Shown piece by piece: positions 37,942 to 57,704 of a stretch of DNA of 64,000 nucleotides. Every line of letters starts with the position of its first letter. Positions within the stretch are counted from its first letter, which is position 1. The notes beneath the pieces are model-generated. The model was not told where the DNA came from and made no database searches. It saw only the letters and a program-made list of their open reading frames with translations. Source of the stretch: Candidatus Poribacteria bacterium (GTDB taxonomy: Bacteria > Poribacteria > WGA-4E > WGA-3G); NCBI GenBank assembly GCA_965242965.1, contig OZ251518.1, forward strand, positions 2,400,001 to 2,464,000, given 5' to 3'. Made by a program: the position numbers and the translations under genes.

Positions 37942-39372
37942 ATGAACGCACAAAAAACCGTGCTGATAGTCGATGCAGACCGGCGGCAGCGCGACCGGAT
38001 TTGCCAAACGCTCAGTGGACAAGGCCTCCGCCTGATTGTCAAAGACAATATGTATCAGGCGTTTCACCAGATCGAATATCAGAAGATAGATGTCCTCATC
38101 GCCCCGCTGAAGGCAGAACGGATTGACGGCTCGGCACTCTTGGAAGCCGCGGCGCAGCAGCATCCGGATGTCGGTATCATTTTCATTACCGCGCCGAATG
38201 TGTTGGAGACTGACATCGGCATCAAGGCGATGACCGCGCATGAAGGCACCTATTTTCTCCCGAAGCCTGTCAACCCTGTCCATCTGAAGGCACTGCTACA
38301 GCGCACGCTTCAAATTCAGCAGCTGGCGTTTGAAAACCGGCAGTTGCAATCGCAAATCGACGAGAAGGAAGGCTTACGCCGCATGACAGGACAATCGCCG
38401 CAAATGACACGCGTGCGCGAGATGATTACCCAGATCGCGCCGACAAGGGCGACGGTGATGATATACGGTGCGCGCGGCACCGGCAAGGAACTCGTCGCCC
38501 GGGCGGTGCATCATCGCAGCCTGCGGCGCGGCTCCCTCATCGCCTTTAACTGCGCGACGCTCAACGAAAACCTCGCCGAATCGGAACTCTTCGGACACGA
38601 ACGCGGCTCGTTTAGCGGCGCGTATAACCAACGGAAGGGACGGTTTGAACTCGCGCACGGCGGAACGCTGTTCCTTGACGAAGTCTCGAAACTGAGTATA
38701 TCCAATCAGGCGCGCCTGCTGCGCGTCCTCGAAGAACGCGAATTTGAACGCGTCGGCGGCTCAAAGACTATCAAAGTTGACGTCCGCGTCGTTTGTGCAA
38801 CGAATAGCGACTTGGAACTCGCTTGTCAAGAGGGGTATTTCCTCCCAGACCTTTATGACAGGCTCAACGTTATCCCTATCCATTTGCCGACGCTACATGA
38901 ACGGATAGAGGATATCCCACTGTTAGTCAAAGATTTTCTTGAGGAATTTTGCCGCGAAAATAAGAAACAGCGGATAACCCTCTCACCGGCGGCAATCCGA
39001 ACTTTGATGAAATACGAGTGGCCCGGCAACGTGCGCGAGCTGAAAAATTGCATCGAGGGACTCGTCGTCATGTCCACGCATACCCGCTTGGAACAGGCTG
39101 ACCTGCCGGAACGTATCCTCAAGGCGGCTGGCGTGATGATGTCAAACATCGTTTCGGTCCCGACGCTGCGCACGGCAGCACCATCGGACACCGTCGGCCC
39201 GCCGAGTCTCAACGTAGAAATCGGCATGTCAATGGACGAGATTCATCAGGAAGTGCTGCGCGCCACGCTGGAGTATGTTGATAACAACAAAGCGAAGGCG
39301 GCGAAAATCCTCCAAATCAGCCGACGCACCATTCAACGGAAGGCGAAAGAATATGGACTCTGCAACAATTAG
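37942..39372 (+). CDS. NtrC/AtoC-type AAA+ enhancer-binding protein with atypical receiver domain and Fis HTH
   Basis: [57 protein letters not shown]. Confidence 0.9.
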
Positions 39373-40677: not shown

Positions 40678-40781
40678 GTTCACATGGAGTCAGGGTGAAA
40701 GTTTAGAGGAGCTCTCATAGTCCAAACGGATAGAGCAAATTAAGGCACGCGCGCAGAAGGCATCTGATTTGTCATAAGTGA
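40678..40781 (+). pseudogene. remnant of the 3' end of the PAPS-reductase-family gene
   Basis: 40678-40710 is identical to 48406-48438; 40763-40781 is identical to 48580-48598; in-frame TAG and internal deletion. Confidence 0.85.
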
Positions 40782-40791
40782 AGGTGTTTAC

Positions 40792-41415
40792 GTGAAAATA
40801 GCTGAGTTTCAAGGAAGCGAAATAGTGGAGGTCCCGAAACACTCCGGTATTTACGCGTGGTATTATCGCCCACAAGCATCTGGAAACAACGTCTCTGGCA
40901 TCCTAGGACAGTTGATAAAGACTCCCTTTCGCGTGAAGACCGAAATTGCTATGCGATATCGGGTAATCTGGACAGCGGAGTCCGAAGCCGAGGTTCTCCA
41001 CGGTGCCGAACTCCACCCTGCAGACCAGGTTGTGGCAAAGATAGTTACCGATGGCGGCGAACTCATCAAATCCTTGCTTCAACAGGCGATGGTGCCTTAC
41101 TTTGCAACACCTCTCTATATCGGAATTTCCCGAGACTTATCTCGGCGGGTGAAGGAACACTACGATTCCTTGACGCAGCTCTGGGAAACAGATGCACCCG
41201 TAAGCAATTATCTTGAACAGAATCCCGATGCAGCGGTCGAAGAGGTTCTGAATCAGTTTGATTTAAACCATTCATTTCCGCTCAACGCAAGAGTCAAAGG
41301 AATAGCCCCGAGCGATCTGGTAGTCTGTGTTTTTCCTGTTGAGGATCAGGAAAAACTGCGAGACTTAGAACAAATTCTTCAGATTCTCGCCGATCCAATT
41401 TGTGGTAGGAGATAA
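40792..41415 (+). CDS. GIY-YIG-like nuclease
   Basis: PKHSGIYAWY ... LYIGISRDLSRRVKEH ... LE. Confidence 0.75.
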   Translation: MKIAEFQGSEIVEVPKHSGIYAWYYRPQASGNNVSGILGQLIKTPFRVKTEIAMRYRVIWTAESEAEVLHGAELHPADQVVAKIVTDGGELIKSLLQQAMVPYFATPLYIGISRDLSRRVKEHYDSLTQLWETDAPVSNYLEQNPDAAVEEVLNQFDLNHSFPLNARVKGIAPSDLVVCVFPVEDQEKLRDLEQILQILADPICGRR

Positions 41416-41419
41416 GCCG

Positions 41420-43717
41420 ATGTCAACCATGTTCAGTGTCGCCAAAAACCCCATTTTCGGATCTTTTGGGGAATTTACAATTGGTGACAACTCAAATACC
41501 CTTCGGGCCAGATACCTTCTCACGAAAATCAGGCCGGGGAACGATGGCACTTGGGAATGCGAGTTGGCATCCCAAATGAAGCCATGGCGCGAAGTCTTCA
41601 ATCTTGAACAGTTGAGTTCCGATGAACTTTTACAACGAGAACTGGACGATTCGCGCGTAGCGCATGACCTCATCCCCTATCTGCTCGGTGAATCCGGAGA
41701 TAGAGCAAAGTTCTTTCCGCCGATTCTCGCCGTAATCGTCCCGCGTAAGCAGGGTGGCTCTGGAATTGAAGGGTTTTATCCGGCTCGGGAGGCTCAAGGC
41801 GCATCGGTTGAGCATTACGGCAATCTGTTTGATTTTGAGCGAATTGAATGGGGAGGTGAACTTACCCCACTCGCGCGTCTCAACTATAATCGGCAACGCG
41901 CCGCGTTCATTATTGTTGACGGCCAACATCGCGCTATGGCTGTGCTCGCTCTGCACAGGCAGTTGAACCAGAACTGGGGAGATAACGCCTTCGCCGCTTA
42001 CTACGAACACATCAAGGTGACACCCGAACAAGTCAAAAGCATTGAATTGCCGACGTGTATCATCTATTTCCCAGAGCTACATGATGGGAATCCGCTGCCG
42101 CGACAACAAGGTATCAATTTAAACTCCGTTTGTCGGGAGGTATTCCTAGTCGTCAACCGAAGTGCCAAACGTGTGAGCGCGGTGCGCGAGTGCTTGCTAG
42201 ACGACGAGGATATCGCCGCACGCCTGATGCGCCGAACCCTCTCAACGCTGAAAAACCGCGGCGAAGAACAGGGTGACTTAGCCCGAATTTATTCAATTTC
42301 TTATGGCGATTCAGACACCGAAACCGGAGAAAAAGAGGTAGCCTCCCGGCGACTTGAATATAGCAGTGCCATTGCGATACATAAGAGCCACAGCGCGATC
42401 GCTTTCGGTGTTAACGAAGGGTTTAAGTTAAAAAATCCTCAGGACATTTCGGAACGGTGTAAAACCAAAAACATCAATCGTCCATCCGAAATCCTACTGG
42501 GAACGAGTGTGGAAGATTACCGAATCCTCGCGCGCAATTCAGGGAAAACACTCCCAACCGCCGAAGTCGACGTAGTCGTCGAAAAACTGGGGAACTTGGC
42601 AGACGCTGCTTTGGTGCGACTTTTCGACCAATTTCGTCCGTTTCAGGTTCATAATGCCGAACTCCGAAAATTGAGACTGCGGCTTTCAGATGTTCATCCT
42701 GATGCTCAGAGCGAACAGAAGAAAGCGTATACGCTGATTTTCGAGGGAAGCGAGGAGCGGAACGTCTTTGACTCACATTTCAGGCGGCTGAGTTATGAAT
42801 GTGAGCGCGAGGGGCAAACAGTCCCACCGCACCTCCTGAATCAGATAGATTTCTGCAAGTCTGTTAAGCAGGCACTCGGCGAGCACGAACGCGAATTCCA
42901 ACGCCGCCGCGCATGCAAATTCTTCGGAATAAACCGCGCCCTATTTGATAGTGACGATCATCGGGAAGACCGCGCATTTCTGAGTAACAAGGCACGAAAA
43001 CTCTTCCTAACCGTGTCAACCCAAGCGTTTCAGTTGGGCTATGCCATGGCGATTTTCACCGTCGTTGAAGAGTTGAAACGCGGGAGACCGGATGCCTCCC
43101 CTTTGCTGTATCACGACAGGCTGAAACTTGTCGAATTCGTGACAGAGGCATATCTCGCTGCGCTCAACACTTACTTTTCCCCCAAGGACGATACGGTTCA
43201 TCAGGGGCTTGCTGGCTACATCTGCGAGCCGCGGGCATCGGTTTTTGATGCAAATTCTCCGGGGCTTCGCGGGCTCTTGGCGATGAGCGTCAATGAACTG
43301 AACGAACGCCAATGGCGATTTTTCCGCTACGCCATTTTAGAGATTGTCCACTCGCCGTTCTGCTGGCATGCTGCTCAGAAAAAAATGAAGCAGATGGACT
43401 GCGAATGGGCACTAACGTGGTATAAAGAATCCATCCCCAAATTGGTGGAGGGTATTCTGTCCGAACGTGCAAAGTATGTTGAGGATGCGCTGGAAGCGGG
43501 CATCAAAAGTCGCGATTTTGAACTGCTGAAAATGCGCACGGAATCTGAAGCGAGAGATGTCGGCAAAAGCGAAGAACGCATCCGGCAACTTGTTGAAAAA
43601 CTTCAGCATTCCCATCGGACCACAGCAAAGCAAAACGCGCTTGACCACCTCAAGGCAAGTTTAGAAACCGTTGAATCCAAATCGGAGATGATCCGACGTT
43701 TACGCGATAACTTTTAG
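41420..43717 (+). CDS. large DGQHR-domain (DndB/ParB-like) protein
   Basis: LLQRELDDSRV, FFPPIL, IVDGQHR, EVFLVVNRSAK. Confidence 0.8.
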   Translation: MSTMFSVAKNPIFGSFGEFTIGDNSNTLRARYLLTKIRPGNDGTWECELASQMKPWREVFNLEQLSSDELLQRELDDSRVAHDLIPYLLGESGDRAKFFPPILAVIVPRKQGGSGIEGFYPAREAQGASVEHYGNLFDFERIEWGGELTPLARLNYNRQRAAFIIVDGQHRAMAVLALHRQLNQNWGDNAFAAYYEHIKVTPEQVKSIELPTCIIYFPELHDGNPLPRQQGINLNSVCREVFLVVNRSAKRVSAVRECLLDDEDIAARLMRRTLSTLKNRGEEQGDLARIYSISYGDSDTETGEKEVASRRLEYSSAIAIHKSHSAIAFGVNEGFKLKNPQDISERCKTKNINRPSEILLGTSVEDYRILARNSGKTLPTAEVDVVVEKLGNLADAALVRLFDQFRPFQVHNAELRKLRLRLSDVHPDAQSEQKKAYTLIFEGSEERNVFDSHFRRLSYECEREGQTVPPHLLNQIDFCKSVKQALGEHEREFQRRRACKFFGINRALFDSDDHREDRAFLSNKARKLFLTVSTQAFQLGYAMAIFTVVEELKRGRPDASPLLYHDRLKLVEFVTEAYLAALNTYFSPKDDTVHQGLAGYICEPRASVFDANSPGLRGLLAMSVNELNERQWRFFRYAILEIVHSPFCWHAAQKKMKQMDCEWALTWYKESIPKLVEGILSERAKYVEDALEAGIKSRDFELLKMRTESEARDVGKSEERIRQLVEKLQHSHRTTAKQNALDHLKASLETVESKSEMIRRLRDNF

Positions 43718-43787
43718 ATGCCTGTCTTCGCGCAGCTCCTATAACTTGACAAGCACTTTTGAAAATGGCAATTTTACTGGAAGTATC

Positions 43788-46700
43788 ATGAACAACATAT
43801 CTTTGTCCGACATTTTTAGCGTTAACAGGCGTTTTCAGCGTTCGGTTCATCTGGAACGCGATTTCTATACCGAAAATGCCCTAGACGGTTACATCATAAC
43901 AAACACCGTTCGCGATACATTATCACGCGTCATTTACGCGCTTGAGCAGCGCGCAACATCAAAAGCGTGGTCTCTCACTGGCCCCTATGGTTCTGGGAAA
44001 TCCGCGTTCGCGCTTTTCACTACGAAGTTGCTCGGTGATTCTGCTGCACCGACAACCCAACAGGCTTCGCAACTGCTCAAACAAGCGGACGCAGCATTAT
44101 ACCAGCAATTCATTAAAGCAAAAGGAAAAGGTCGGTTGTCTCCCGGTTTCTGTCCTATCCTCATAACGGGAGAACGTGCCCCCATTACGCTTGCTCTCCT
44201 GCGCGGTTTGGAACAGGGACTTACTTCTTTCAATCGAACGCTGTTCTCCGATTTGCTTCTTCAGGATGTCAAAAACCTGCTGCAAACAGCAGACAAAGGC
44301 TCTCTTCCGCGCGCTTCTGAGATTACAGCCCTTTTTGAAACGGCGACACGGCAAATCTGTGCAGATGGAGGTTCAGGGATATTGCTGGTAATTGATGAAC
44401 TTGGGAAGTTCATTGAATATGCGGTGCAGCACCCGGATCGCGGAGACGCATTTGTCCTCCAAAGTCTCGCCGAATTTGCCTCGCGCAGCGGAAAAACCCC
44501 GCTGTTGCTATTGACAATTCTCCATCAGGCTTTTGAACAGTATGCACAGCGGGCCGCGAAATCCCAACGCGAAGAATGGGCAAAAGTGCAAGGACGGTTT
44601 GAGGATGCCATCTTTGCGGATTCCACCGAGCAGGTCCTCCGGCTCATCGGCGAAGCATTAACAACCCGTTCGGAACTCGTTCCAAAAACCAACTTCGCGA
44701 TTGCGGTTGACTTGGAACTCAAACCGCGGCAACTTGACGAGCACGAATTTATTCAACTGCTGGAAAGGTGTCTCCCCCTTCACCCGACAGTGGCACTCCT
44801 AATCGGTTCCCTTTTCCGGCGGTTTGCACAGAATGAACGTTCCTTATTCGCGTTCCTCGGTTCAAATGAACCCCACGGGCTCCAAGATTTTCTTTTGAAC
44901 CAATTTTACGATGGACGCGCGCTGCCGCTGTTTTCATTGGCGAATCTGTATGACTACATCAATACCGCGCTAGGAAATCGGCTGTATGAGTCGCGCGATA
45001 GCAAGAAATGGTCAGAAATTGAATCGGCAATTCAGCGTCTGCCAGATCCGTCTCCGATGACAGTCAGCCTGATTAAGACTATCGGTTTGCTCAATGCTGT
45101 GGGAGAGGTGAGCCGGAATCTGAAAGCCTCAGATCAGGTGCTCCGTTATGCGTTAGACGATGGCACGGCAGAATTCGCCGAGGAATTTACAGATGCGCTG
45201 GAGACGTTAGAAAAACGGTCTATTGTCACCTACCGCCGTTACAACGATGCGTATGCTCTCTGGGAAGGGAGCGACATTGACATTGAGACTAAACTCCGCG
45301 AAGCGTCAAAACATGTCAATCCGAATCTGCGAGTGGCAAAAGACCTGGAGAGACTTCTTCCCCAGCGGCCGCTTATCGCCAAACGGCACCTATTTCAGAC
45401 TGGCACCACGCGCTACTTCAACGTTCAGTATTCAGAACTTGAAACCTTTGAGGCGGATTTGCGCGCACCACTCGATGATGCAGATGGCCTTGTCCTCTAC
45501 GCATTGCCCGAAGATGAACTTGAAGTGGCGCAGCTCGTCGAAAAGGCATCCGCGGCGGAAGCCGCAAACCGAAAAGAGGTCTTGGTTGCCATTCCGCGCT
45601 CCATCGGTTTTTTGCGGGATGCTGTCCTTGAGTTGGCCCACCTGCGCTGGATCGCAGAAAACACCCCAAAGTTGAAAGGCGATGCAACCGCAAGACATGA
45701 ACTCTTATCGCGGTTAACCGTAGCGGAACATGATGTGGCTTCGCGCTTGGAGGCAATCTTTGGCGAGCACAGCGAGAAGACTTGCATCTGGTACCACAAG
45801 GGACGACCGGTGCAGATTGACTCGCAACGCGCGAGAAACGCCTATCTGTCAACTATCTGCGATGAGGTTTACGACGAAACTCCTATCCTGCAGAACGAAC
45901 TGATCAATCGGCATAAAATATCTGGTTCAGTGACAACCGCCAGACGAAAACTGATTCAGGCGATGCTTGAAAATGGAGGCGAGGAGAAACTCGGCATCAC
46001 CCGCTATCCACCAGAAATAACGATTTACGTTTCCATGTTGTCAACTACAAGTATTCACCGTCCAGTTTCGGGAGTGTGGGGATTTCACCCACCTGAACCT
46101 TCCGATAAAAACAGAATGGGCCCCACGTGGAAAGCGATTGAAACGTTCCTTGGCGAATGTGAAGTCGCGCGACAACCTGTCGTGAAACTCTACGAACGCT
46201 TGTCCGCACCACCACTAGGCGTGCGAAGCGGGCCGCTACCTATTCTGTTATGCGCCGCGATGCTCCACTACAAAACAGAAATCGCGCTCTACGAAGACGG
46301 TTCCTTTGTCGCCGACGTTTCAATGCCGGTTTTTGAACGCCTGATTAAGGCACCGGAGAAATTTGAATTAAAGCGGTTTCGGTTGGCAGGAGTCAGGACA
46401 GACGTGCTTTCGCAATTGGGGGGAGTGCTCAAACAACCAGCAGCGGCAGACACGCCAGACCTGCTAACGATAGTGACACCCCTTATGCGTTTCATTGCTG
46501 AACTCCCAAAGTATACGTTGTTAACGCAAACGTTGAGTGAGGAAGCGAAAAATCTCCGCAAAACCGTACTGGATGCACGCGAACCCGACATGCTCATCTT
46601 TGAGCAGCTCCCCGAAGCCATGGGGTGCCCTCCTTTTCGCATTGACGCAACATCCGATGCAAACGCCATTGATACCTTCTTCAAAAAGCTGCAAGACGCA

Positions 46701-47282
46701 TTGGCAGAAATAGGCGGGGCTTACGATATCCTGCTGAACTCCATTGAGCAACTCCTCGTCTCGGCGTTTGCTTTAAAACAGACGAACGAGGAACTTCGCA
46801 GGGAGTTGGCTGACAGAGCTGAATCCCTGTTGGCAGTAACGGTTGAGACGCGGCTCAAGGGATTCTTAATTCGCGCCTGCGACCTCGGTTTGGATTTCAC
46901 CGGCTGGCTTGAGGCGATCGCCACCTTCCTCGCCAACAAACCGCCGAGTTCGTGGAACGACACGGACAAGGCTCAATTTGAGGTGAACCTCTCCGAATTG
47001 GCGCGGAAGTTCCATCATTTTGAAGCGGTGTCTTACGAAAATCGCTCCCACGTCGAACAACCGTCGGCCGGTGAGTCCATTCGGATTGGCATCACCAGAG
47101 CGAATCAACGCGAGCAAGAACGGGTTGTCGCTTTGCCATCACCAACCGAGGAACAGGCTGCCAAACTTGAGCACGCGATTGAGGAGGTTTTTGAGAAATT
47201 CGGGATCGCTGAAAACACCGAACATTGCCTCGCTGTCATCGCGCGATTATCAGAAAAATTGATGCAACAACTAGAAAATTGA
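43788..47282 (+). CDS. large P-loop ATPase, SspC/BrxC-like
   Basis: RFQRSVHLERD, Walker A GPYGSGKS, Walker B LLVIDELGKFIEY, EWAKVQGRF, PLHP, QNERSLFAFL. Confidence 0.75.
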   Translation: MNNISLSDIFSVNRRFQRSVHLERDFYTENALDGYIITNTVRDTLSRVIYALEQRATSKAWSLTGPYGSGKSAFALFTTKLLGDSAAPTTQQASQLLKQADAALYQQFIKAKGKGRLSPGFCPILITGERAPITLALLRGLEQGLTSFNRTLFSDLLLQDVKNLLQTADKGSLPRASEITALFETATRQICADGGSGILLVIDELGKFIEYAVQHPDRGDAFVLQSLAEFASRSGKTPLLLLTILHQAFEQYAQRAAKSQREEWAKVQGRFEDAIFADSTEQVLRLIGEALTTRSELVPKTNFAIAVDLELKPRQLDEHEFIQLLERCLPLHPTVALLIGSLFRRFAQNERSLFAFLGSNEPHGLQDFLLNQFYDGRALPLFSLANLYDYINTALGNRLYESRDSKKWSEIESAIQRLPDPSPMTVSLIKTIGLLNAVGEVSRNLKASDQVLRYALDDGTAEFAEEFTDALETLEKRSIVTYRRYNDAYALWEGSDIDIETKLREASKHVNPNLRVAKDLERLLPQRPLIAKRHLFQTGTTRYFNVQYSELETFEADLRAPLDDADGLVLYALPEDELEVAQLVEKASAAEAANRKEVLVAIPRSIGFLRDAVLELAHLRWIAENTPKLKGDATARHELLSRLTVAEHDVASRLEAIFGEHSEKTCIWYHKGRPVQIDSQRARNAYLSTICDEVYDETPILQNELINRHKISGSVTTARRKLIQAMLENGGEEKLGITRYPPEITIYVSMLSTTSIHRPVSGVWGFHPPEPSDKNRMGPTWKAIETFLGECEVARQPVVKLYERLSAPPLGVRSGPLPILLCAAMLHYKTEIALYEDGSFVADVSMPVFERLIKAPEKFELKRFRLAGVRTDVLSQLGGVLKQPAAADTPDLLTIVTPLMRFIAELPKYTLLTQTLSEEAKNLRKTVLDAREPDMLIFEQLPEAMGCPPFRIDATSDANAIDTFFKKLQDALAEIGGAYDILLNSIEQLLVSAFALKQTNEELRRELADRAESLLAVTVETRLKGFLIRACDLGLDFTGWLEAIATFLANKPPSSWNDTDKAQFEVNLSELARKFHHFEAVSYENRSHVEQPSAGESIRIGITRANQREQERVVALPSPTEEQAAKLEHAIEEVFEKFGIAENTEHCLAVIARLSEKLMQQLEN

Positions 47283-47464
47283 CATGACTAGATCGTAGGA
47301 AGGGAGTTCGTGTGGTTAATCTGGCAAGGGGTTTCCTTGTCGCAGATAGGAAACCTCTTCCGGTCCGTAAGTCCTAAAGAGATGTTTTCCCACAATGCGC
47401 CGTTTCCGATGCTTTCTGAAATGTTGCAAAAACCGTGGAATCTGACATCACAACAAATTTTAAT

Positions 47465-47559
47465 TTGACATTTTGCTGAAAATGTAGTATAATTAAAATA
47501 GCAATAAAATCTATAGCAAACGTTTTTTGTTTGCAAATTTTGGATTTTTATGGTATACT
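47465..47559 (+). promoter_or_regulatory. two tandem sigma70 promoters upstream of the PAPS reductase-like gene
   Basis: TTGACA-N17-TATAAT (47465-47493) and TTGCAA-N17-TATACT (47531-47559). Confidence 0.7.
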
Positions 47560-47779
47560 ATACGAAACGTTGTTAATTGCGTTGGTTCGTGAACGGCTGC
47601 AGCATTGAGGCAGCACTCGGATTCATCGCAGCGAATGAAGTCGCGCGGCGGTTTTGAGAAATTACGCACAATTTTCATTCGCGTTAAAACACGTAGTTCA
47701 AAGGTGGAGGCAGTCAATTTGCAGATTCGGCACTGCAACTCCGTAAAGCCTATTTTATAGTAGCCAACAGGAGCAAAGC

Positions 47780-48598
47780 ATGGAAGAAAAAATACGCCAT
47801 CTCCTCGGCCTCTCCGGAGGCAAAGACAGTTCAGCGCTCGCCGTTTATATGCGAGACCGCGTGCCGCAGATGGAATACTTTTTCTGCGACACCGGGAAGG
47901 AACTGCCAGAGACTTACGAGTTTCTGGATCGGTTAGAGGCATTCCTCGGCAAACCGATCGCGCGCCTCAATGTAGAACGTGACTTCGATCATTGGCTCAC
48001 GCTCTACGGCGGCCTGCTGCCATCGTCGCAAGTTCGGTGGTGCACCTATAACCTCAAGATTAAGCCGTTTGAGGAATACGTAGGCGAGGACAAAGCGTAT
48101 CACTACATCGCGATTCGCGCCGACGAAGATCGCGTTGGCTATAAACCGCCGAAAACAACCGCGCTCCGAAGCATCGAACCCAAGTATCCTTTCAAGGATG
48201 ATGGCATCACCAAAGAGGATGTCTTCCGCATCTTGGAGGAAAACGGGATCGGTTTACCCGCCTATTACGATTGGCGGACGCGCTCCGGGTGCTACTTCTG
48301 CTTTTTCCAACGCAAAGCAGAATGGGTGGGGCTATTGGAAAAGCATCCTGACCTTTTTGAACTCGCCAAGGGTTATGAAAAATTCGACCCGGATACGGGC
48401 GAACGGTTCACATGGAGTCAGGGTGAAAGTTTAGAGGAACTCTCGGAACCTGAACGGATAGAGCAGATTAAGGCACGCGCGGAGAAGGCTACTGCCGCTA
48501 AGAAAACGGCGCGTCCCAATCGCCGCCTCATCGATATCCTCACCGATGTCCATGATGATGAGGATGACGATGAGCCTTGTCTGATTTGTCATAAGTGA
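47780..48598 (+). CDS. PAPS reductase family protein, SspD/DndC-like
   Basis: PP-loop SGGKDS, DTGKE, RWCT..LKI.PF, IRADE, RSGCYFCFFQ, C-terminal CLICHK. Confidence 0.85.
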   Translation: MEEKIRHLLGLSGGKDSSALAVYMRDRVPQMEYFFCDTGKELPETYEFLDRLEAFLGKPIARLNVERDFDHWLTLYGGLLPSSQVRWCTYNLKIKPFEEYVGEDKAYHYIAIRADEDRVGYKPPKTTALRSIEPKYPFKDDGITKEDVFRILEENGIGLPAYYDWRTRSGCYFCFFQRKAEWVGLLEKHPDLFELAKGYEKFDPDTGERFTWSQGESLEELSEPERIEQIKARAEKATAAKKTARPNRRLIDILTDVHDDEDDDEPCLICHK

Positions 48599-48614
48599 GA
48601 CTTAGAGGTTCCTA

Positions 48615-49499
48615 ATGGATCGGGAAACACTTCTCGAAAAATTCACAAATCTCCGGCAATGGAACAGGGGTGCGGAGAGAGCACCGCATAAACCCTTGCT
48701 AATCATATACGCCATCGGCAAATTGCTGCGAGGTGAGGGCCGACTGACTCCATTTGCCGAAGCAGACGTGGACGTTGGAAAATTATTGCGGGAGTTCGGC
48801 GGGCGACAATCAAAACAGGGAACCCAGTATCCTTTTTGGCGGTTGCGCAACGATAGCATCTGGGAAGTAACCGATGCAGCCCTGATGTCCCCCAACTCCA
48901 GTGGGGACGTGAGAAAAAGCGAACTCCTCAATCTTAACGTTGCTGGTGGTTTTCACGAAGCCATTGCTGAACAACTCCAAAATGACACAAGTCTAGCTTT
49001 TGAAATAATTCATAAGCTGTTAGACATGCATTTTTGTGATGGAATGCATAGTGACATTTTGCAAGCCGCTGGCATTGAACTGCCCATCAAGGTTTTTGAA
49101 ACCAAGATGCGAACATCCAACTTCCGAGAAAAAGTCCTGAGAGCCTACGAATACAGATGTGCTGTCTGCGGTTTCGATGTGAAATTAGGAATACTTCCTC
49201 TCGCGTTGGAGGCCGCTCATATCAAATGGCAAGCGTTCGGCGGTCCTAATGAAGAGGTGAATGGACTGGCTCTTTGCGTCCTGCATCATAAGTTATTTGA
49301 CCGTGGGGCTTACACTTTGTCGCCCCAATGGGAAGTCCTGATATCAGATGATGCACACGGGTCTGTTGGTTTTGAGGAATGGCTGATGCGGTTCCACGGT
49401 AAACCAATTAACTTTCCGCAACGGCAGTCCTACTATCCGGGTGCAGATTTCATCAGTTGGCACGTCAACGAGGTGTTCCAAGGGGATTACCGGGAATAA
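48615..49499 (+). CDS. SBD-HNH endonuclease (phosphorothioated-DNA-binding restriction endonuclease type)
   Basis: N-terminal APHKPLL and QYPFWRL sulfur-binding-domain motifs; C-terminal CAVCG, EAAHIK, NGLALCVLHHKLFDRG. Confidence 0.8.
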   Translation: MDRETLLEKFTNLRQWNRGAERAPHKPLLIIYAIGKLLRGEGRLTPFAEADVDVGKLLREFGGRQSKQGTQYPFWRLRNDSIWEVTDAALMSPNSSGDVRKSELLNLNVAGGFHEAIAEQLQNDTSLAFEIIHKLLDMHFCDGMHSDILQAAGIELPIKVFETKMRTSNFREKVLRAYEYRCAVCGFDVKLGILPLALEAAHIKWQAFGGPNEEVNGLALCVLHHKLFDRGAYTLSPQWEVLISDDAHGSVGFEEWLMRFHGKPINFPQRQSYYPGADFISWHVNEVFQGDYRE

Positions 49500-49549
49500 T
49501 CCACTGAGCACACTTCATCCACAGTCAAAGTGTGTTAAGGATAAAAATC

Positions 49550-50521
49550 ATGGCAAATGTTCAGACTTACTTCAACAAGTTTCATGATACCATCAGAAGA
49601 AGCTATAACGACAATAGCATTCTGAGGGATAAGAGGGATCTGCTTTTACGGGATCTACAAGAAGGGCTGCGGAGGTACGCCTTGGCCTCTGGCATCAAAA
49701 TCCCGAGATACGAGCACTTCAATCAGGGCAGTTACGCGATGGATACCGGGATTGAACCGCTCTCCGGCGAGGATTATGATATTGATGTCGGCTTGACTTT
49801 TCATATATCAGCGTCGACCTATTCCCCCGTTGAGGTCAAGCAGTGGGTTTACGAAGCCTTGAACTCCGGGAACAGAACGGTGGAGTACAAACGTCCTTGC
49901 GTGAGGGTCCAATATCATCGGAAAGGGGAGGAAATCTACCACGTTGATTTTGCTGTCTATTCCGGAAAGGCCTATAATTGGGACAATCAGACCTATCTAG
50001 CAAAAGGCTTTTTGGGATCTGCCCCCGAAAACCAGGTCTGGGAAATTTCAGAACCGCATGGACTACTGGAAGCATTTCAGCAGAAATTTCCGAACGAAGG
50101 AGATCGAAATCAGTTTCGGCGAGTTATCCGATTCCTGAAGCGGTGGAAAGACGTGAATTTCACTGCGGAAGGAAACGCGCGTCCCACCGGGATTGCGCTG
50201 ACAGCGTGCGCCATGAATTGGTTTCAGCGTGGACTGGTTTATCGGGCTGCTGTTGGCACCAATTATGATGACTTAACAGCACTCAGGAACCTTGCTGAGT
50301 CAATCCTAAGTCAGTTTGATTTTGGGAATCGGATAAGTGTCAGACTACCTGTTCCACCACACAATGATCTGTTTGAGAAATTGAGCAACAAACAGATGGC
50401 AAACCTTGAAAGCAAACTTGCGGTACTCGTGACTTCCTTAACTCGGGCGCAAGAAGAATCTTCCTATGTTTCAGCATGCCGCATTCTACATCGCCTTTTC
50501 GGAGATGACTTTCTACCGTGA
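49550..50521 (+). CDS. cGAS/DncV-like nucleotidyltransferase (CD-NTase/SMODS) 1
   Basis: QGSYAMDT, DYDIDVG, KRPCVRV, HVDFAVY, IRFLKRWK, FGDDF. Confidence 0.85.
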   Translation: MANVQTYFNKFHDTIRRSYNDNSILRDKRDLLLRDLQEGLRRYALASGIKIPRYEHFNQGSYAMDTGIEPLSGEDYDIDVGLTFHISASTYSPVEVKQWVYEALNSGNRTVEYKRPCVRVQYHRKGEEIYHVDFAVYSGKAYNWDNQTYLAKGFLGSAPENQVWEISEPHGLLEAFQQKFPNEGDRNQFRRVIRFLKRWKDVNFTAEGNARPTGIALTACAMNWFQRGLVYRAAVGTNYDDLTALRNLAESILSQFDFGNRISVRLPVPPHNDLFEKLSNKQMANLESKLAVLVTSLTRAQEESSYVSACRILHRLFGDDFLP

Positions 50522-50605
50522 TAACCGGAACCAGCCGAATTTGGACAAGACTCGCGTAGTTTTTATAACGCTATGTTTTTCCATAACTAGAGAAGGTTAG
50601 TCAAA

Positions 50606-51553
50606 ATGGATGAGAAAATCAAAAGAATTCTGACAATTGATGGAGGAGGAATTAAAGGGGTATTCCCATCTTCCTTCCTTGCTACTGTTGAAGATTCAAT
50701 CAAAGACAACGTAGCAAACTATTTTGACTTAATCGTCGGTACCTCGACCGGTGGCATCATAGCTCTGGGCCTTGGGCTTGGATTATCAGCGCAGGAGATT
50801 TTGACGTTTTATGAAGAATCCGGACCTCGGATTTTTGGTGGGAATCGTCTTGGACGGTGGTTGAGAGGGCTTGGCATGTCAAAGTACAATAGCGACCCTC
50901 TTGAGGAAGCACTAAAGGAGTGCTTTGGGGAAAAGAAACTGGGCGATAGCAAAAAACGCCTAGTCATCCCATCAATGAACCTTGAAAATGGCGAGGTCTA
51001 CATCTACAAGACAGCCCATCATCCTCGATTGGAAAGAGATTTCAAGCAAAAGGTTGTTGATGTGGCCCTCGCAACCGCTGCCGCTCCAACTTATTTTCGC
51101 GCACATAGGTCGGATGGAGGAACCCCTCTAATTGATGGGGGTGTATGGGCGAATAACCCCGTGGGACTATCCGTAGTTGAAGCAATTGCGTTGCTTGACT
51201 GGCCAAGGGATTCTTTAAAAATCTTGAGTTTGGGTTGCACTCATGAACCATTAAACGTGAATTGGGGCAGAAAATTCTCACTAGGACGTTTATATTGGGC
51301 ACTAAAATTGTGCGACGTGTGTATGCATGCACAATCCCACGGATCCCTCGGAACAGCGCAACTTCTTGCGGGACATGATAACGTCATCAGGATTAACCCA
51401 TCCATGGCCAGCGGAAAGTTTGGTTTAGATAAAGCCAAGGAAATTTGCTCGCTCAAAGGTCTCGGAGTAGACCAAGCCCGAAAAGCGTTGCCTCAACTCC
51501 GCAAGGTTTTTATCAGCAATCCAGTAGAAGCATTTGAGGCTTTCCACAGATAA
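50606..51553 (+). CDS. capV: patatin-like phospholipase, CBASS effector
   Basis: DGGGIKG, GTSTGG, AAPTYF, IDGGVWANNP; flanked by CD-NTases. Confidence 0.85.
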   Translation: MDEKIKRILTIDGGGIKGVFPSSFLATVEDSIKDNVANYFDLIVGTSTGGIIALGLGLGLSAQEILTFYEESGPRIFGGNRLGRWLRGLGMSKYNSDPLEEALKECFGEKKLGDSKKRLVIPSMNLENGEVYIYKTAHHPRLERDFKQKVVDVALATAAAPTYFRAHRSDGGTPLIDGGVWANNPVGLSVVEAIALLDWPRDSLKILSLGCTHEPLNVNWGRKFSLGRLYWALKLCDVCMHAQSHGSLGTAQLLAGHDNVIRINPSMASGKFGLDKAKEICSLKGLGVDQARKALPQLRKVFISNPVEAFEAFHR

Positions 51554-51569
51554 ACGAAGGTGAAAAAAT

Positions 51570-52640
51570 ATGTTTACTTACTCAAACCAATTCAGTAGGT
51601 CTCTCGATCAGGTCATATCCCAATCGTTGGACATATCTGATGAGCACCACCAACTGGCGGTAGAACGCTATAAATCCATAGGTAACTGGCTAGAACGGAG
51701 AGGGTCTAGAGTCGCTCACTACCGTCCCGAAATCTATCCACAAGGCTCTTTTCTGCTGGGTACAGTTACGCGCCCTGTTTCCAACGCCGAAGAGTACGAT
51801 ATCGACCTCGTGAGCGAACTGAATCTTGAAAAATTCCGAATCAGCCAAGAAGGACTCAAGAACTTAGTCGGGGACGAAATCACGGCCTATGCCCGCACTC
51901 ACTATCTGGATCTGCCAAAGAATGGAAGGCGTTGCTGGACGCTGAATTATCCAGGCAATGCCCGATTCCACATGGACATCTTACCAGCGATTCCAGATGG
52001 AGAATCGTTCAAACAGACTCTCCTGTCAAACGCAGGATCGTTCCCGAATTTCTCTATTGCAATTGGCTTGTCAAGTTTTGCAATTGCAATTACTGACAGA
52101 GATCATTGCAATTACAATAGGATTGATCGGAATTGGCCTCGCAGTAATCCGAAGGGGTATGCAGCATGGTTCATGAACAGGGGACTCAACCGAGACCTGA
52201 CTGATACTCGGGCTGTTGAGGATGTCCCGGATCACAGCGTCAAAACACCCCTCCAGCGGACAGTTCAGATACTGAAGCGTCACCGCGACATCTGGTTTGA
52301 CAAGATGGTGAGGCAGCGCCGCTACAGACGAGACGATAAACCAATCTCTATCATCATTACGACGCTTGCGGCTCACGCCTACGAAGGCGAAAAAGACCTG
52401 CAAGAATCCCTCCAGAATATTGTAAGGAAGATGCCGAGCTCTATTGAGTGGCGATACGGTGGAGTCGCCTACGTACGCAATCCGGTGGATCCGTTGGAGA
52501 ACTTCGCTGACAAATGGCAGGAGCATCCTAGCCGAAAGGTTTGCTTCATGGACTGGCTTCAGCAGGTATCCGGGAAAATGAACGATTACCTGGCAAGGCG
52601 CGATATTTCGGCAATGAAGGCGTTACTACGGTTGCGCTAA
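51570..52640 (+). CDS. cGAS/DncV-like nucleotidyltransferase (CD-NTase) 2
   Basis: YPQGSFLLGT, EYDIDLV, RRCWTLNY, FHMDILPA, SNPKGY, LKRHRD, PISIIITTLAA, NPVDPLENFADKW. Confidence 0.85.
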   Translation: MFTYSNQFSRSLDQVISQSLDISDEHHQLAVERYKSIGNWLERRGSRVAHYRPEIYPQGSFLLGTVTRPVSNAEEYDIDLVSELNLEKFRISQEGLKNLVGDEITAYARTHYLDLPKNGRRCWTLNYPGNARFHMDILPAIPDGESFKQTLLSNAGSFPNFSIAIGLSSFAIAITDRDHCNYNRIDRNWPRSNPKGYAAWFMNRGLNRDLTDTRAVEDVPDHSVKTPLQRTVQILKRHRDIWFDKMVRQRRYRRDDKPISIIITTLAAHAYEGEKDLQESLQNIVRKMPSSIEWRYGGVAYVRNPVDPLENFADKWQEHPSRKVCFMDWLQQVSGKMNDYLARRDISAMKALLRLR

Positions 52641-52716
52641 GACAAAGGAGAGGTTGGAGAGGTGAGTAAGATAGAATCTCTTCGGGTCCTATGCACGTTA
52701 CCGAAGTGAAGCCCCC

Positions 52717-53502
52717 TCACTCCCCCAAAAGCCGCAACTTATTTTCATAAACCTGCCGATAATAATCCGCACGCTTCAGTTCCGATGCCGCCGCCTCGTC
52801 TAGCACGACGACGGTGCGGGGATGCATCTGCAATACGGAAGCTGGCACCTCTGCCGTAATCGGCCCCTCCACTGCCGCCGCAATCGCTGCCGCTTTCGAT
52901 GCGCCGTTCGCTAACAGCAGGCACTCCCGCGCCTCCATGATAGTGCCGACACCCATCGTAATCGCCAGCGTCGGCACTGCATCGATATCCCCCCCGAAAT
53001 GTGGCGCGTTCGCCGCTAAGGTGCTTCGCGTCAACGTCTTAATCCGAGTGCGAGAACCGAGTGAGGAACTGGGCTCGTTGAACCCAATATGTCCCTCTCT
53101 GCCGATGCCGAGGATCTGGATATCGATGCCGCCGGCGCGCGCAATCGCGGCTTCATAACGTTCACAAAACGCCCCGTGGTCTTCCGCAGTATTCTGCGGG
53201 AGATAGCGGTTCTCCTCCGGGATGTTGACATGCCGGAAAAAATGCGCCTCCATGAAGGTATGATAACTGGCCGGATGCGTCTTCGGTATGCCGACATACT
53301 CGTCGAGGTTAAAGGTTGTCACGGCAGAGAAATCGAGTCCCTCTTCGGTGTGCATTCGGACGAGTTCCTCGTAAAGTCCGATGGGCGTGCTACCGGTGGC
53401 GAGTCCCATGACGAGTTCGGGTTTTTTGAGGAGCGCGCGCTTCACGATATCGGCGGCGATGGCGACGAGGTGTGGATACGTCGGTTGAATGATAATTTCC
53501 AT
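52717..53502 (-). CDS. nagB: glucosamine-6-phosphate deaminase
   Basis: GLATGSTP, TFNLDEY, GIGREGHIGFNEP, ITMGVGTI. Confidence 0.95.
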   Translation of the reverse strand: MEIIIQPTYPHLVAIAADIVKRALLKKPELVMGLATGSTPIGLYEELVRMHTEEGLDFSAVTTFNLDEYVGIPKTHPASYHTFMEAHFFRHVNIPEENRYLPQNTAEDHGAFCERYEAAIARAGGIDIQILGIGREGHIGFNEPSSSLGSRTRIKTLTRSTLAANAPHFGGDIDAVPTLAITMGVGTIMEARECLLLANGASKAAAIAAAVEGPITAEVPASVLQMHPRTVVVLDEAAASELKRADYYRQVYENKLRLLGE

Positions 53503-53506
53503 GAGA

Positions 53507-54295
53507 TTACGCGGTGCCGGCGATGATGTTATCCATATCCTCGCTGATTTGATGGACGGTGCCTTCGGGGTTTTCTTTATCAACCGGAAGTTCAGCGGTG
53601 ATGTAGTCGTCGTAGCCGATGTCTGCGAGTGCAGTCATCACAGCGTTCCAATCGATGGTGCAGTCTTCGATCAGGTAGGTGAACCGGCGTTCCTCGGCGT
53701 TGAAGCCTTTCACATGCACTTTGGCGATGCGAGAACCAAGCGAACGGATCCAGTGTTGCGGGAAGCCGTAGAGGACGATGTTGCCCACATCAAAATACGC
53801 CGTGACAGCAGGGCTATCAAAGGCATCGATGTAACTGGCGAATTCAAAGGGACTGAGCAGGAATTTATTCCAGACGTTTTCAAGCGCAATGGTGAGTCCC
53901 TTCGCGGTGGCATGGGGAATCAACTTGCGGATTTCTGTATGCGAACGGTGGTATGCCAATTCATAAGGCGTGGCTTCGTTGACAACAGCCGGAACAAGTA
54001 GCACCGTGTCCGCGCCGATGGCTGTCGCCGTCTCCATGGACTCAAGCACTCCGTCGCGCGAGGCGGCGCGCACCGATTCGTCATCATCGGAGAGCGGGTG
54101 AGACCAGTGTTTGGCGTTCATGACGCTGAACAGCTCTATCCCGTGTTGCGTCGCGAGGTGTTTCGTCTGGAGCCGGTCTGCCTCATTTTCGAGGGTTCCG
54201 ATTTCCACGCCGTCAAATCCGGCGGCTTTTGCGAGTTTGAATCGGGCTTCGGTTGTGTCGCCCGGTAGTGAACCGATACAAATTCCTTTTTTCAT
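53507..54295 (-). CDS. sugar phosphate isomerase/epimerase (xylose-isomerase-like TIM barrel)
   Basis: AGFDGVE, ENVWNKFLLSP, YFDVGN, VHVKGF. Confidence 0.85.
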   Translation of the reverse strand: MKKGICIGSLPGDTTEARFKLAKAAGFDGVEIGTLENEADRLQTKHLATQHGIELFSVMNAKHWSHPLSDDDESVRAASRDGVLESMETATAIGADTVLLVPAVVNEATPYELAYHRSHTEIRKLIPHATAKGLTIALENVWNKFLLSPFEFASYIDAFDSPAVTAYFDVGNIVLYGFPQHWIRSLGSRIAKVHVKGFNAEERRFTYLIEDCTIDWNAVMTALADIGYDDYITAELPVDKENPEGTVHQISEDMDNIIAGTA

Positions 54296-54317: not shown

Positions 54318-54932
54318 GAGGGTGTTTCATAACTCGTTGTTGTCACAATGGTTTCGTGAGCTCCCGAACGATGCCGTTTCTCCCGTAGGAGAGACCTCCC
54401 GGTCTCGATTTCTTGCCCGTAGGCGAGCCCTCCCGGTCTTGATTTTCCCGTAGCGCGGGGGCCCTCGGAGGTTTCCATACGCGCATCCGAGCGGGTTTCC
54501 CCCGCGTTGGCCATCGTCAAGAGATGGCGTTTTAGGTCCTTTAGGTCCTACATGTCTATAGCAGCACGTGTTGTTCCATTTTCAAGGTCCTTTAGGTCCT
54601 TAATAAAGAACATGCGGCCCTGGCAAAATATTAAGGACCTAAAGGACCTTAGCGTTCTTCGCGTCTGCGCGTGCTATAGACATTCAGGACCTAAAGGACC
54701 TGAAGAGAACAAGAGACGTTTTTTCCGTAGCGCGAGCGATGGCGAGGGAAACCCGCTCGCATGCGCGTGTGGCATGCGAGGGCCCACGCCCTACGATGAA
54801 GGGGGCTTTCTGCCGTTCCCCCAGTATGCGCGCCGTCCTATTGCATCGAGACCAGGAGGTCTCTCCTACCGGCATGCGTCAAGACCGGGAGGTCTCTCCT
54901 ACCCGGAAGCCATCGAGTTATGAAACATCATC
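54318..54932. mobile_element. MITE-like element with REP mosaic
   Basis: TIRs GAGGGTGTTTCATAA / TTATGAAACATCATC; the right end overlaps the holB stop codon. Confidence 0.7.
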
Positions 54933-55884
54933 ATTGCAATAACTTCAGACACATCACCTCCAAAGCCAACGTCGCGTTTGTGTTGGTGTTGTCAATGAGG
55001 GATTTCGTCTGGAAAATGGTTTGGATTGCCTGCTGGAGGCGCAAGCGGGAATAGCGCGGCACTAACGCGCGCAACTCCTCTAGCGAATGGTTGTGCGTAA
55101 TCAACTCCGTAGGCGCGCCTTGGTGTAAGAAAAGCAGGTCGCGATACCACGTCACTAACTCAGCCAACCGTTCTGGTTCGTTCTTGAATTGCTCGGCGAA
55201 CCGAAAGGCTGCCAGCACCTCGGTCTCCTTCAAAATTTCCGGTATCTCCTGCGAGAGCGCGTCGCCTTTTTCCAGTTGCGTCAGTGCTTTGCCGATGGCA
55301 CCACCCGTTGAGATTGCGATAGCTGTCGCTTTCTCGGGGTCCGCCGAAAACCGATGGGTTAAAACCTCCGCCAATTCCTCGGGTTGCATCGCGTGGAATT
55401 GGAGGATTTGGCATCGGGAACGCGTCGTTGGCAGCAACGCCTCAATGTTGGAGGTGAGGAGAATGATGACAGAGGATGCCGGGGGCTCCTCCAGTGTTTT
55501 GAGGAGGCAATTCTCTGCTTCGGCGTTCATCCGTTCCGCCTCTGTTAAGATGTAGACTTTCCTGCTCGCCTCCAACGGTTCGTAGATAATCTGGCTTTGC
55601 ATTTCGCGGATTTGCCCGATTTTCAGGAGGCTGCCCTCGCGCCGGATGAACCGCAGGTCTGGATGATTGCCGGATGTTACTTTGCGGCAGGCGAGGCATT
55701 GTCCGCAGACTATCGGCGGCTGTGCTTCTTGCTGGCAGAAGATGAGCCGCGTGAAGTAGGTGGCCACCGTCTCCTTGCCGACTCCCGATGGCCCGACGAA
55801 GAGATACGCGCCGGCGATTCGTCCGGATGCGACGGTGCGTTGGAGTTGTTCAATGATGTGTTCGTGTCCGATTATGTCTTGCAT
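54931..55884 (-). CDS. holB: DNA polymerase III subunit delta'
   Basis: AYLFVGPSGVGK, CGQCLAC, HPD, AENCLLKTLEEPP, LLPTTRSRC; downstream of tmk. Confidence 0.93.
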   Translation of the reverse strand: MQDIIGHEHIIEQLQRTVASGRIAGAYLFVGPSGVGKETVATYFTRLIFCQQEAQPPIVCGQCLACRKVTSGNHPDLRFIRREGSLLKIGQIREMQSQIIYEPLEASRKVYILTEAERMNAEAENCLLKTLEEPPASSVIILLTSNIEALLPTTRSRCQILQFHAMQPEELAEVLTHRFSADPEKATAIAISTGGAIGKALTQLEKGDALSQEIPEILKETEVLAAFRFAEQFKNEPERLAELVTWYRDLLFLHQGAPTELITHNHSLEELRALVPRYSRLRLQQAIQTIFQTKSLIDNTNTNATLALEVMCLKLLQ

Positions 55885-56893: not shown

Positions 56894-56900
56894 TTATGAT

Positions 56901-56929
56901 ATTTTAGCATTTTGTGGTTTTGATGTCAA
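56901..56929 (-). promoter_or_regulatory. promoter giving a probably leaderless tmk-holB mRNA
   Basis: - strand TTGACA-N17-TAAAAT (TGn extended)-N7-ATG, with no SD. Confidence 0.65.
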
Positions 56930-56982
56930 GATGAAAATTTTTTGTTGCCTGGAGCGGGATTTACAAAAGAGGAGCGGGTGAC

Positions 56983-57704
56983 TGTAGTTCGGGATCGCCT
57001 GATCCCGAACGGGACATGGCAGAACCCCTTCCTGGCCCGTAGCGCGGGGGCCCTCGGATGCCATCCGCGCATCCGAGCGGGTTTCCCCCGCGATCGCCCG
57101 ACTTGCGCGAAAACTGCACGCCAGCCAAAGCCGTTTCCCCAACCGAGGCACGGCGAGGGACAGGCCCCTCGCCCTACGGGCAGCGGCACGTTTTTTTTCG
57201 TAGCGCGCGGGGCTCGGAGGTTTCCATACGCGCATCCGAGCGGGTTTCCCCCGCGATCGTTGGAGTGCGCCGACGATGGCGAGGGACAGGCCCTCGCCCT
57301 ACGGTGTGGGGGGCGTTTTTTTTCGTAGCGCGGGGGACAGGCCTCCGCGAGCTCCATCGTCATGATGTGTGTTTTCCCTCTCTGTAGTTTGTGATCGCCT
57401 GATCACAAACGGGTCAGGATCAGGCGATCCTGACCTACAGGACCTGGCACGAGAACGATGGCGAGGGACAGGCCCTCGCCCTACGATGAAGGGGGGGTTT
57501 TATCGTAGCGCGGGGGCCTGTCCCCCGCGACCGTTGGATTGCGCGGACGATGACGAGGGACAGGTTTTCCCACCGCCCTACGATGAAGGGGAGCTTTCTG
57601 CCGCCCTATTGCATCGAGACCGGGAGGTCTCTCCTACCGGGGAAACGGAATCGTTCAAGGTATCACGAAACCAGTTTGACAACAACGAGTTATGAAACAC
57701 CCTC
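56983..57704. repeat. REP mosaic ending in a solo right TIR
   Basis: Multiple modules; GACAACAACGAGTTATGAAACACCCTC ends at 57704. Confidence 0.8.

Follow-up and report, generated by a model that had tools for sequence, protein, structure and literature searches.

CBASS, antiphage systems that signal by means of cyclic oligonucleotides, are usually described as one cyclase per operon, wired to one effector. Here, we describe a CBASS block with two cyclases from the 5.7-Mb genome of a sponge-associated Candidatus Poribacteria bacterium, located at 49550-52640 of a 64,000-nt stretch (G000:C1:2400001-2464000; hereafter the window). It consists of cdn1, a gene for a CD-NTase (nucleotidyltransferase resembling cGAS and DncV), a gene for the patatin phospholipase CapV, and a second CD-NTase gene, cdn2. 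The parts are ordinary CBASS components. Its unusual features are a maintained unit that joins two cyclases from different clades to a single effector, and the persistence of a clade-G cyclase of E2-CBASS ancestry without its tail and without E2. We tentatively read this cassette, which by sequence comparison arose through fusion, as a two-sensor CBASS.

Type I CBASS with CapV, as in CapV-DncV of Vibrio cholerae, shares with the block the minimal logic of a CD-NTase whose cyclic dinucleotide switches on a patatin phospholipase, without ancillary genes. Here, however, the lipase stands between two cyclases that differ in clade, and neither belongs to clade A (DncV was not among their PDB matches at E<=0.01). 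E2-CBASS (type II short), represented by SmCdnG-E2 of Serratia marcescens, likewise employs a clade-G cyclase, and the nearest relatives of cdn2 outside its own lineage have the long motif and the downstream E2 that the available part of PMC12948482 describes for this system; the window, by contrast, has neither E2 nor the E2-binding motif, and its effector is CapV, whereas that of S. marcescens is a two-transmembrane (2TM)-SAVED protein. The best solved relative of cdn2 is VcCdnG of the V. cholerae CdnG-Cap5 system (9WOO; available part of PMC12804361), where the effector is Cap5 instead of CapV and the cyclase comprises 396 amino acids (aa) as against 356 aa in cdn2. Within Poribacteria, cdn1 nests among the cyclases of type I CdnB-Cap5 operons (L162-L172 and L097; loci are numbered with L, genomes with G, sequencing runs with X), and in the window CapV-cdn2 replaces Cap5. 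Tandem CBASS arrays (L143 and L173, with L144 grouped with them) also combine two co-oriented cyclases and adjoining Cap5-type and CapV-type modules, but there each cyclase keeps its own effector and E2, whereas the window keeps one effector. A phrase search of the literature turned up no paper that deals with a CBASS operon holding two cyclases, although an earlier mention is possible.

Two dissimilar cyclases around one patatin

The block is filled by three co-oriented open reading frames (ORFs), with gaps of 84 bases between cdn1 and CapV and of 16 bases between CapV and cdn2:

cdn1, 49550..50521, + strand: CD-NTase of clade-B-like type, 323 aa, not truncated, GS/DxD/D motifs of the active site intact
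cdn1/CapV junction, 50522..50605, unstranded: 84 bases, the position where relatives carry Cap5
CapV, 50606..51553, + strand: predicted patatin phospholipase effector, 315 aa, GTSTG Ser47, DGG Asp177
cdn2, 51570..52640, + strand: predicted clade-G CD-NTase core, 356 aa, without the ~45-residue C-terminal E2-binding motif

The family matches of the three predicted genes are strong and far above chance. The products of cdn1 and cdn2 matched the Pfam DncV-like NTase model (PF21654, cut-off 24.9 bits) with 60.4 and 31.9 bits and PADLOC cyclase models at 2.9e-107 and 6.2e-116, respectively, and theirs were the only DncV-like NTase domains genome-wide. CapV matched Pfam Patatin (97.7 bits), the PADLOC phospholipase effector model (5.3e-105) and the NCBIfam model CBASS_lipase NF041079 (268 bits, cut-off 200). 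Pfam, PADLOC and NCBIfam matches and motif reading thus confirm the initial annotation, made from the letters of the window, which had described two CD-NTases around a patatin, co-oriented and with intact motifs; the slight similarity that it had noticed between the cyclases now has a value, 20% identity over 330 columns (BLASTP E 5e-7). Two features by which CBASS is recognized, CD-NTase motifs and an adjacent Cap-class effector, are present. Cap2/Cap3, HORMA/TRIP13 and a second effector, also reported as lacking, were indeed not found among the ORFs of the block, which, as in type I systems, holds no ancillary gene (Cap2/Cap3, E2, HORMA/TRIP13 or Cap6-8).

The ORF of cdn1 was listed from a GTG at 49532, but the ATG at 49550, giving 323 aa, is the likely start, because nine homologues begin with MANVQ there. 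Its catalytic motifs, Q59-G60-S61, D77-x-D79 and D133, were identified from the translation and from PDB alignments. The closest PDB entries, 8YSN, 8YSD and 8YSC (2e-72 to 6e-69), carry the title 'Nucleotidyltransferase' only; we infer that they represent the Deinococcus CdnB cited in the available part of PMC12804361. The sole clade-labelled match was Bacteroides fragilis CdnB (7LJO, 4.9e-14), assigned to clade B04 with mainly 3'3'-cGAMP (GMP and AMP in cyclic linkage) as product in the part of PMC10442399 at hand, and on account of this match cdn1 is called clade-B-like. It shares 63-69% identity with the cyclases of the Poribacteria CdnB-Cap5 operons.

In cdn2, the corresponding motifs are G59-S60, D77-x-D79 and D136, again supported by translation and PDB alignments. 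All three PDB matches at E<=0.01 are CdnG proteins, VcCdnG (9WOO, 2.2e-62), SmCdnG (8HSB, 4.6e-26) and BdCdnG (7LJN, 7.4e-14), as named in the available parts of PMC12804361, PMC12948482 and PMC10442399, respectively. These matches, together with shared substrate-binding residues, place cdn2 in clade G by sequence. Residues of VcCdnG needed for 3'2'-cGAMP synthesis were established by mutagenesis, according to the accessible text of PMC12804361. Of these, G56/S57, D73/D75, D135 and R120 correspond to G59/S60, D77/D79, D136 and R121 of cdn2, and S193, K244/R247, S261 and E308/F310 to S192, K236/R239, S260 and E310/F312. All are conserved, and the sole needed residue from that text changed in cdn2 is K118, replaced by G119.

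The cdn2 product terminates with ...LLRLR, whereas homologues outside the lineage extend for ~45 residues or into a fused domain. In our alignment, the missing stretch corresponds to residues 352-398 of SmCdnG, described in the available part of PMC12948482 as the E2-binding helix-plus-sheet motif, and the C-terminal motif ending in a conserved glycine that characterizes E2-CBASS cyclases is absent. A candidate tail remnant past the stop codon, obtained by tblastn with one homologue that read through the TAA at 52638-52640 into 52641-52691, was rejected; a profile of 11 homologue tails gave that frame no score, and shuffled controls reached up to 3.5 bits. The next relatives outside the lineage are <=61% identical and 371-615 aa long. 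Elsewhere in the clade, cyclases with a C-terminal AGS_C sensor domain (513-519 aa) or a long SEC-C-motif extension (620 aa) were found at L107/L148 (G174), L102/L143 (G155) and L120/L160 (G026).

Alignment to CapV chains of solved structure shows both dyad motifs in the window CapV, G45-T-S47-T-G49 and D177-G-G, and the protein is predicted from its family to be a cyclic-dinucleotide-activated phospholipase effector. Two further CapV-like patatins, scoring 245 and 253 bits with PADLOC effector models, are encoded in the genome with no cyclase within 1.5 kb:

CapV-like patatin, G000:C1:263266-264099 (L003:1441-2358), - strand: adjoins a PDC-S11-like gene
CapV-like patatin, G000:C1:4916456-4917253 (L004:1453-2586), + strand: matches a PADLOC effector model

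Cap5, E2, CapH/CapP and the E2-binding tail of CdnG are absent from the block yet found in relatives. A tblastn search of the whole genome at E<=1e-3 detected neither E2 nor Cap5, while the same queries matched every control relative, so that the E2 gene found beside the cyclase in E2-CBASS is missing from window and genome alike; remnants of Cap5 or E2 sought in the window gave noise only (E >0.06). A SAVED Pfam search of the genome was also empty, but its controls were silent too, and we give it no weight. The 84-base junction holds no Cap5 remnant and ends in an AAGG ribosome-binding-like site ahead of the CapV ATG. Neither intergenic gap of the block holds a promoter or terminator site in a scan for consensus matches only. 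No other ORFs occur in the block, the flanking ones being a phosphorothioated-DNA (PT-DNA)-binding HNH nuclease gene and nagB.

Descent of the parts and distribution of the arrangement

The nearest relatives of the window CapV were found in Candidatus Poribacteria metagenome-assembled genomes. In a quick maximum-likelihood tree, cdn1 fell inside a Cap5-linked clade, sister to L172 (Shimodaira-Hasegawa-like approximate likelihood ratio test [SH-aLRT] 92), and therefore its ancestor had Cap5. The window CapV belonged to a clade of 9 Poribacteria CapVs (support 97), whose members are mostly paired with CdnG; the exceptions are L005, which pairs with another cyclase type, and L148 and L149, where the gene following CapV lies outside the fetched stretch. 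cdn2 was placed within a Poribacteria CdnG clade of 22 (support 95). As judged from these sequence comparisons, the derivation of cdn1 from a type I operon of the CdnB-Cap5 kind, stripped of its effector, is well supported, and so is that of CapV and cdn2 from a capP-capH | CapV-CdnG-E2 operon from which the regulators, E2 and the tail of the cyclase have gone. The initial annotation had named a fusion of partial CBASS loci as the alternative to its main reading, in which two sensors or signals converge on one effector; for the origin of the cassette, the comparisons bear this alternative out.

Cyclases of the cdn1 type were detected at 11 places in 10 of 175 other genomes of the phylum. An HNH-SAVED (Cap5-like) gene lies directly downstream at each of the 11 places, at one of them as a 140-residue fragment only, and the metagenome locus L097 shows the same order. 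A metagenome scan with cdn1 alone found no locus; with an alignment as the query it found four, none with CapV. A scan of viral contigs detected no relative of cdn1 and one distant relative of cdn2 (40% identity).

Cyclases of the cdn2 type, 50-60% identical, are present in 26 other genomes. Layouts were taken from 21 loci, extended by ~5 kb per side where the contig allowed, and none of the 21 has two cyclases arranged as in the window:

CapV-CdnG-E2: L153, L157, L161
CapV-CdnG, the CdnG with a fused AGS_C domain: L160, L143
CdnG-E2-Cap5: L144-L146, L148, L149, L173
CdnG with a ~206-aa neighbour: the remaining layout among the 21 loci

E2 is present in the relatives L144-L146, L148, L149, L153, L157 and L161, and divergent capP and capH lie upstream of CapV in L153, L157, L161 and L148. 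The CapV-CdnG pair with a gap of ~16-20 bases recurs in L143, L153, L157, L160 and L161 and in many loci of a separate CapV survey, which covered the best 80 of at least 490 CapV-related loci, with one genome per species. In none of these best 80 did tblastn find cdn1-type and cdn2-type cyclases flanking CapV. Local profiles of four cyclase groups assigned one cyclase ORF to 72 of the 80, none to 4 and two matches to 4. Of the latter, L032 represents a single split gene, and in L006, L065 and L071 the second cyclase is 1.7-4 kb from the CapV-cyclase pair, so that cyclases on either side of CapV occur in none of the 80.

The surveys by CapV, cdn1 and CdnG found the three-gene order nowhere outside the lineage. 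That the arrangement is a one-off, which the first description of the locus would have counted against its reading, was borne out in that no other lineage examined has it, and was not borne out inside the one lineage, where it is kept with open frames. Tandem arrays that each combine two cyclases with two effectors, all co-oriented, are plausible precursors of the cassette. They are found at L143 (G155), in the order CapV-CdnG::AGS_C-Cap5-cyclase-E2, and at L173 (G160), in the order broken CdnG-E2-Cap5-CapV-cyclase-E2. The CdnG of L173 is split around a 282-aa ORF that belongs to no known defence family.

Allelic variation, proposed signalling and rival explanations

Sponge metagenomes contain DNA near-identical to the cassette stretch. 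At least half of the words sampled from 3.35 kb were present in six runs from three studies, with no RNA run among those listed, and four of the runs were compared with the window. Contigs from other samples spanned all three genes at 3-4% DNA divergence. A single contig of run X6 covered the three genes and showed 106 differences, besides a deletion of 3 bases. The single contig of run X7 across the three genes showed 144 differences and seven gapped places. Five of these places fall within genes and amount to three events: cdn1 has +1/-1 within 3 bases, and cdn2 has a deletion of 3 bases as well as +1/-1 within 6 bases. None of the four in-gene indel events listed shifts the frame. The differences listed were 40 of 213, 32 of them in genes, and among these listed ones synonymous changes make up 5/9 in cdn1 and 8/23 in cdn2, compared with a random expectation of 22-23%. 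The alleles of each gene compare with the window as follows:

cdn1, 5 alleles including the window: 96.9, 93.2, 89 and 83% identity to the window, 323-324 aa
CapV, 5 alleles: 91.4-99.0% identity to the window, 315 aa
cdn2, 8 alleles including the window: 92, 90.2, 90, 85, 85, 82 and 80% identity to the window, 354-358 aa

Both cyclases are more variable than CapV, while the catalytic motifs are invariant across the aligned cdn1 and cdn2 alleles, and all cdn2 alleles are tail-less with the same ...LLRLR end. Equal longest-contig sizes indirectly link to common small contigs the alleles of all three genes (4356 and 3699), of cdn1 and cdn2 (9680), and of cdn1 and CapV (6587). The C-terminal third of the cdn1 allele P0131 comes from another allele type, and X1 and X2 match the window exactly over 49941-51626, yet their cdn2 departs from it by ~10% in protein; on these two grounds, the cassette alleles recombine. 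The cassette behaves as a single unit, whose three genes are passed on and swapped together. With all three frames open in diverged strains, the cassette is, to judge from its sequence, maintained by selection, and since the frames remain conserved at DNA differences of several percent and protein differences of as much as 20%, neither cyclase appears to be a dead orphan.

In the mechanism that we propose, the tail-less CdnG would act as a type I cyclase without E2 and, given the conserved VcCdnG residues, would make a cGAMP-type dinucleotide that activates CapV, whereupon CapV would degrade the membrane and infection would be aborted. cdn1, probably a live enzyme without an effector of its own in the cassette, would most likely feed the same CapV, and the outcome would be two differently triggered sensors acting through one effector. 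Closely related CdnGs in this Poribacteria family pair with either CapV or Cap5, and Cap5 proteins of CdnB operons are 64% identical to those of CdnG-E2 operons, which makes cross-talk plausible and suggests overlapping signals. Protease-cleaved activation loops occur in almost every enzyme of clades A and G and in ~18% of those of clade D, according to the accessible part of a 2026 preprint (PMC12991175); because this part reports such loops for clades A, G and D only, the two cyclases may answer different cues. Dual input, in the sense that both cyclases trigger CapV, may apply, with a likelihood somewhat short of even. To the fuller reading, that of a selected two-sensor CBASS formed by fusion, with a CdnG made independent of E2 after tail loss, with the same or overlapping cGAMP-type signals from both cyclases and with a wider range of phage cues, we assign a probability of about 0.35.

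Several observations weigh against this two-sensor reading. No cdn1-type cyclase neighbours CapV in any of the best 80 CapV loci, CapV lies beside none of the 11 cdn1-type places, and the known partner of these cyclases is always Cap5. Since the arrangement arose only once in evolution, its persistence amounts to no more than one observation. The branch of cdn2 is the longest in its clade (0.63), the amino-acid-changing share of its listed differences is high (15/23), and the non-conservative exchange L62R stands beside its GS motif in four other samples. The 173 differences outside the listed 40 of 213 could hide a stop codon in another strain, the linkage of alleles to a common contig depends in part on equal contig sizes and is to that extent indirect, and the two extra CapV-like patatins could be targets in trans. 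In the E2-CBASS of S. marcescens, either deletion of E2 or a block of the C-terminal glycine abolished defence, as stated in the available part of the preprint 10.1101/2022.05.25.493364, and since both are needed there, a CdnG without tail and E2 might be crippled.

It is possible, though with odds clearly below even, that only the ancestral pair works, with the tail-less CdnG triggering CapV and cdn1 as a leftover, either idle or signalling elsewhere, for instance to other CapV-like patatins. The recurrence in relatives of the closely spaced CapV-CdnG pair is in line with this explanation, as are the exclusive pairing of cdn1-type cyclases with Cap5 and the presence of two orphan CapV-like lipases in the genome, and cdn1 has 21 private changes at columns invariant in its relatives as against <=6 in any other. 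However, cdn1 is full length with invariant motifs in five alleles, the most divergent of which is 83% identical, synonymous changes are overrepresented among its listed differences, and it travels with a cassette that is present or absent between strains, a small unit in which a dead gene would be expected to be lost or broken.

A replacement of one cyclase by the other is improbable. Here, loss of E2 and tail would have disabled CdnG, the captured cdn1 would now sense for CapV, and cdn2 would be drifting, as the dependence of the S. marcescens system on E2 and glycine, in the part of the preprint cited above, might lead one to expect; the long branch of cdn2, its amino-acid-changing differences and the 9.8-20% protein divergence of its alleles, compared with <=9% for CapV, point the same way. 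Nevertheless, the eight cdn2 alleles all measure 354-358 aa, share one C-terminal end and have lost none of the catalytic or substrate-binding residues; their variation is patchy, as expected of the surface loops of a sensor, and at columns that are otherwise invariant cdn2 shows just 4 private changes, a count that several relatives match or exceed. Relative-rate and leave-one-out counts for cdn1 and cdn2 did not discriminate between the rival readings. Least likely, and in our judgment quite improbable, is that the whole block is a functionless remnant of two broken CBASS operons. Cap5, E2, the CdnG tail and capP/capH are all missing and the slot that holds the cassette turns over between strains, but no allele seen has any of the three frames interrupted, the listed in-gene indels keep the frame and the cyclase motifs are invariant, which is difficult to reconcile with decay.

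The exchangeable slot and its neighbourhood

The cassette lies between a cluster of phosphorothioation-type defence genes and a housekeeping gene:

slot, 49499..52719, unstranded: from the stop of the PT-DNA HNH gene to the stop of nagB
PT-DNA-binding HNH restriction endonuclease, 48615..49499, + strand: NF045808, 315 bits (cut-off 180)
glucosamine-6-phosphate deaminase-like (nagB-like) housekeeping gene, 52717..53583, - strand: right flank
SspC, 43746-47282, + strand: phosphorothioation defence, PADLOC 1112 bits
SspD, 47780-48598, + strand: phosphorothioation defence, PADLOC 3.7e-116

The G+C content climbs from 0.47 to 0.55 at the nagB-like gene. A genome of the same genus (G066) is syntenic on both sides, with DNA identities of 88% to window 40763-43724, 67% to the PT-HNH gene and 90% to nagB, and it has a gene for a 401-aa TIR-domain protein (L138:17901-19106) in the slot of the cassette. 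In a sponge metagenome, a contig of run X7 has 3651 other letters where the window has the cassette, linking 49498 to 52720, and loose ends at 52713-52715 in runs X1, X2 and X6 point to further alternatives. The TIR gene of G066, the alternative insert of X7 and these loose ends together argue that the slot is exchangeable.

The phosphorothioation-type cluster (40792-49499) comprises ORFs of 207 and 771 aa, the latter DndB-like by a weak match to Pfam, along with SspC, SspD and the PT-DNA HNH nuclease. G066 keeps the 207-aa ORF, the DndB-like ORF and the HNH gene and has no counterpart of 43725-48659, including SspC and SspD. A perfect TTGACA-17-TATAAT was found at 47465-47493, upstream of SspD. 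SspD, HNH, cdn1, CapV and cdn2 point the same way, the gaps between them measure 16, 50, 84 and 16 bases, and the + strand shows no terminator-like site; read-through transcription from SspD to cdn2 is therefore conceivable. An RtcR/PspF-like CARF-AAA-HTH regulator (37942-39372; PADLOC PDLC01995, 7.2e-100) is encoded upstream of the defence cluster. Short dispersed repeats of ~55-90 bases at window 54379-54934, and also at ~56900-57700, lie between housekeeping genes; they match well over 100 places in two genomes of the same genus on both strands and have the look of a high-copy family akin to repetitive extragenic palindromic (REP) or miniature inverted-repeat transposable (MITE) elements.

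If both cyclases drive CapV, the locus would be a natural case of signal convergence in CBASS. Even otherwise, it illustrates the reshuffling of CBASS modules in a defence slot, with cyclases of clades B and G and their effectors swapping partners within one family. It also shows that a clade-G cyclase is able to persist for long without E2 and tail, both of them required by a model E2-CBASS, which bears on the reversion from type II to type I systems.

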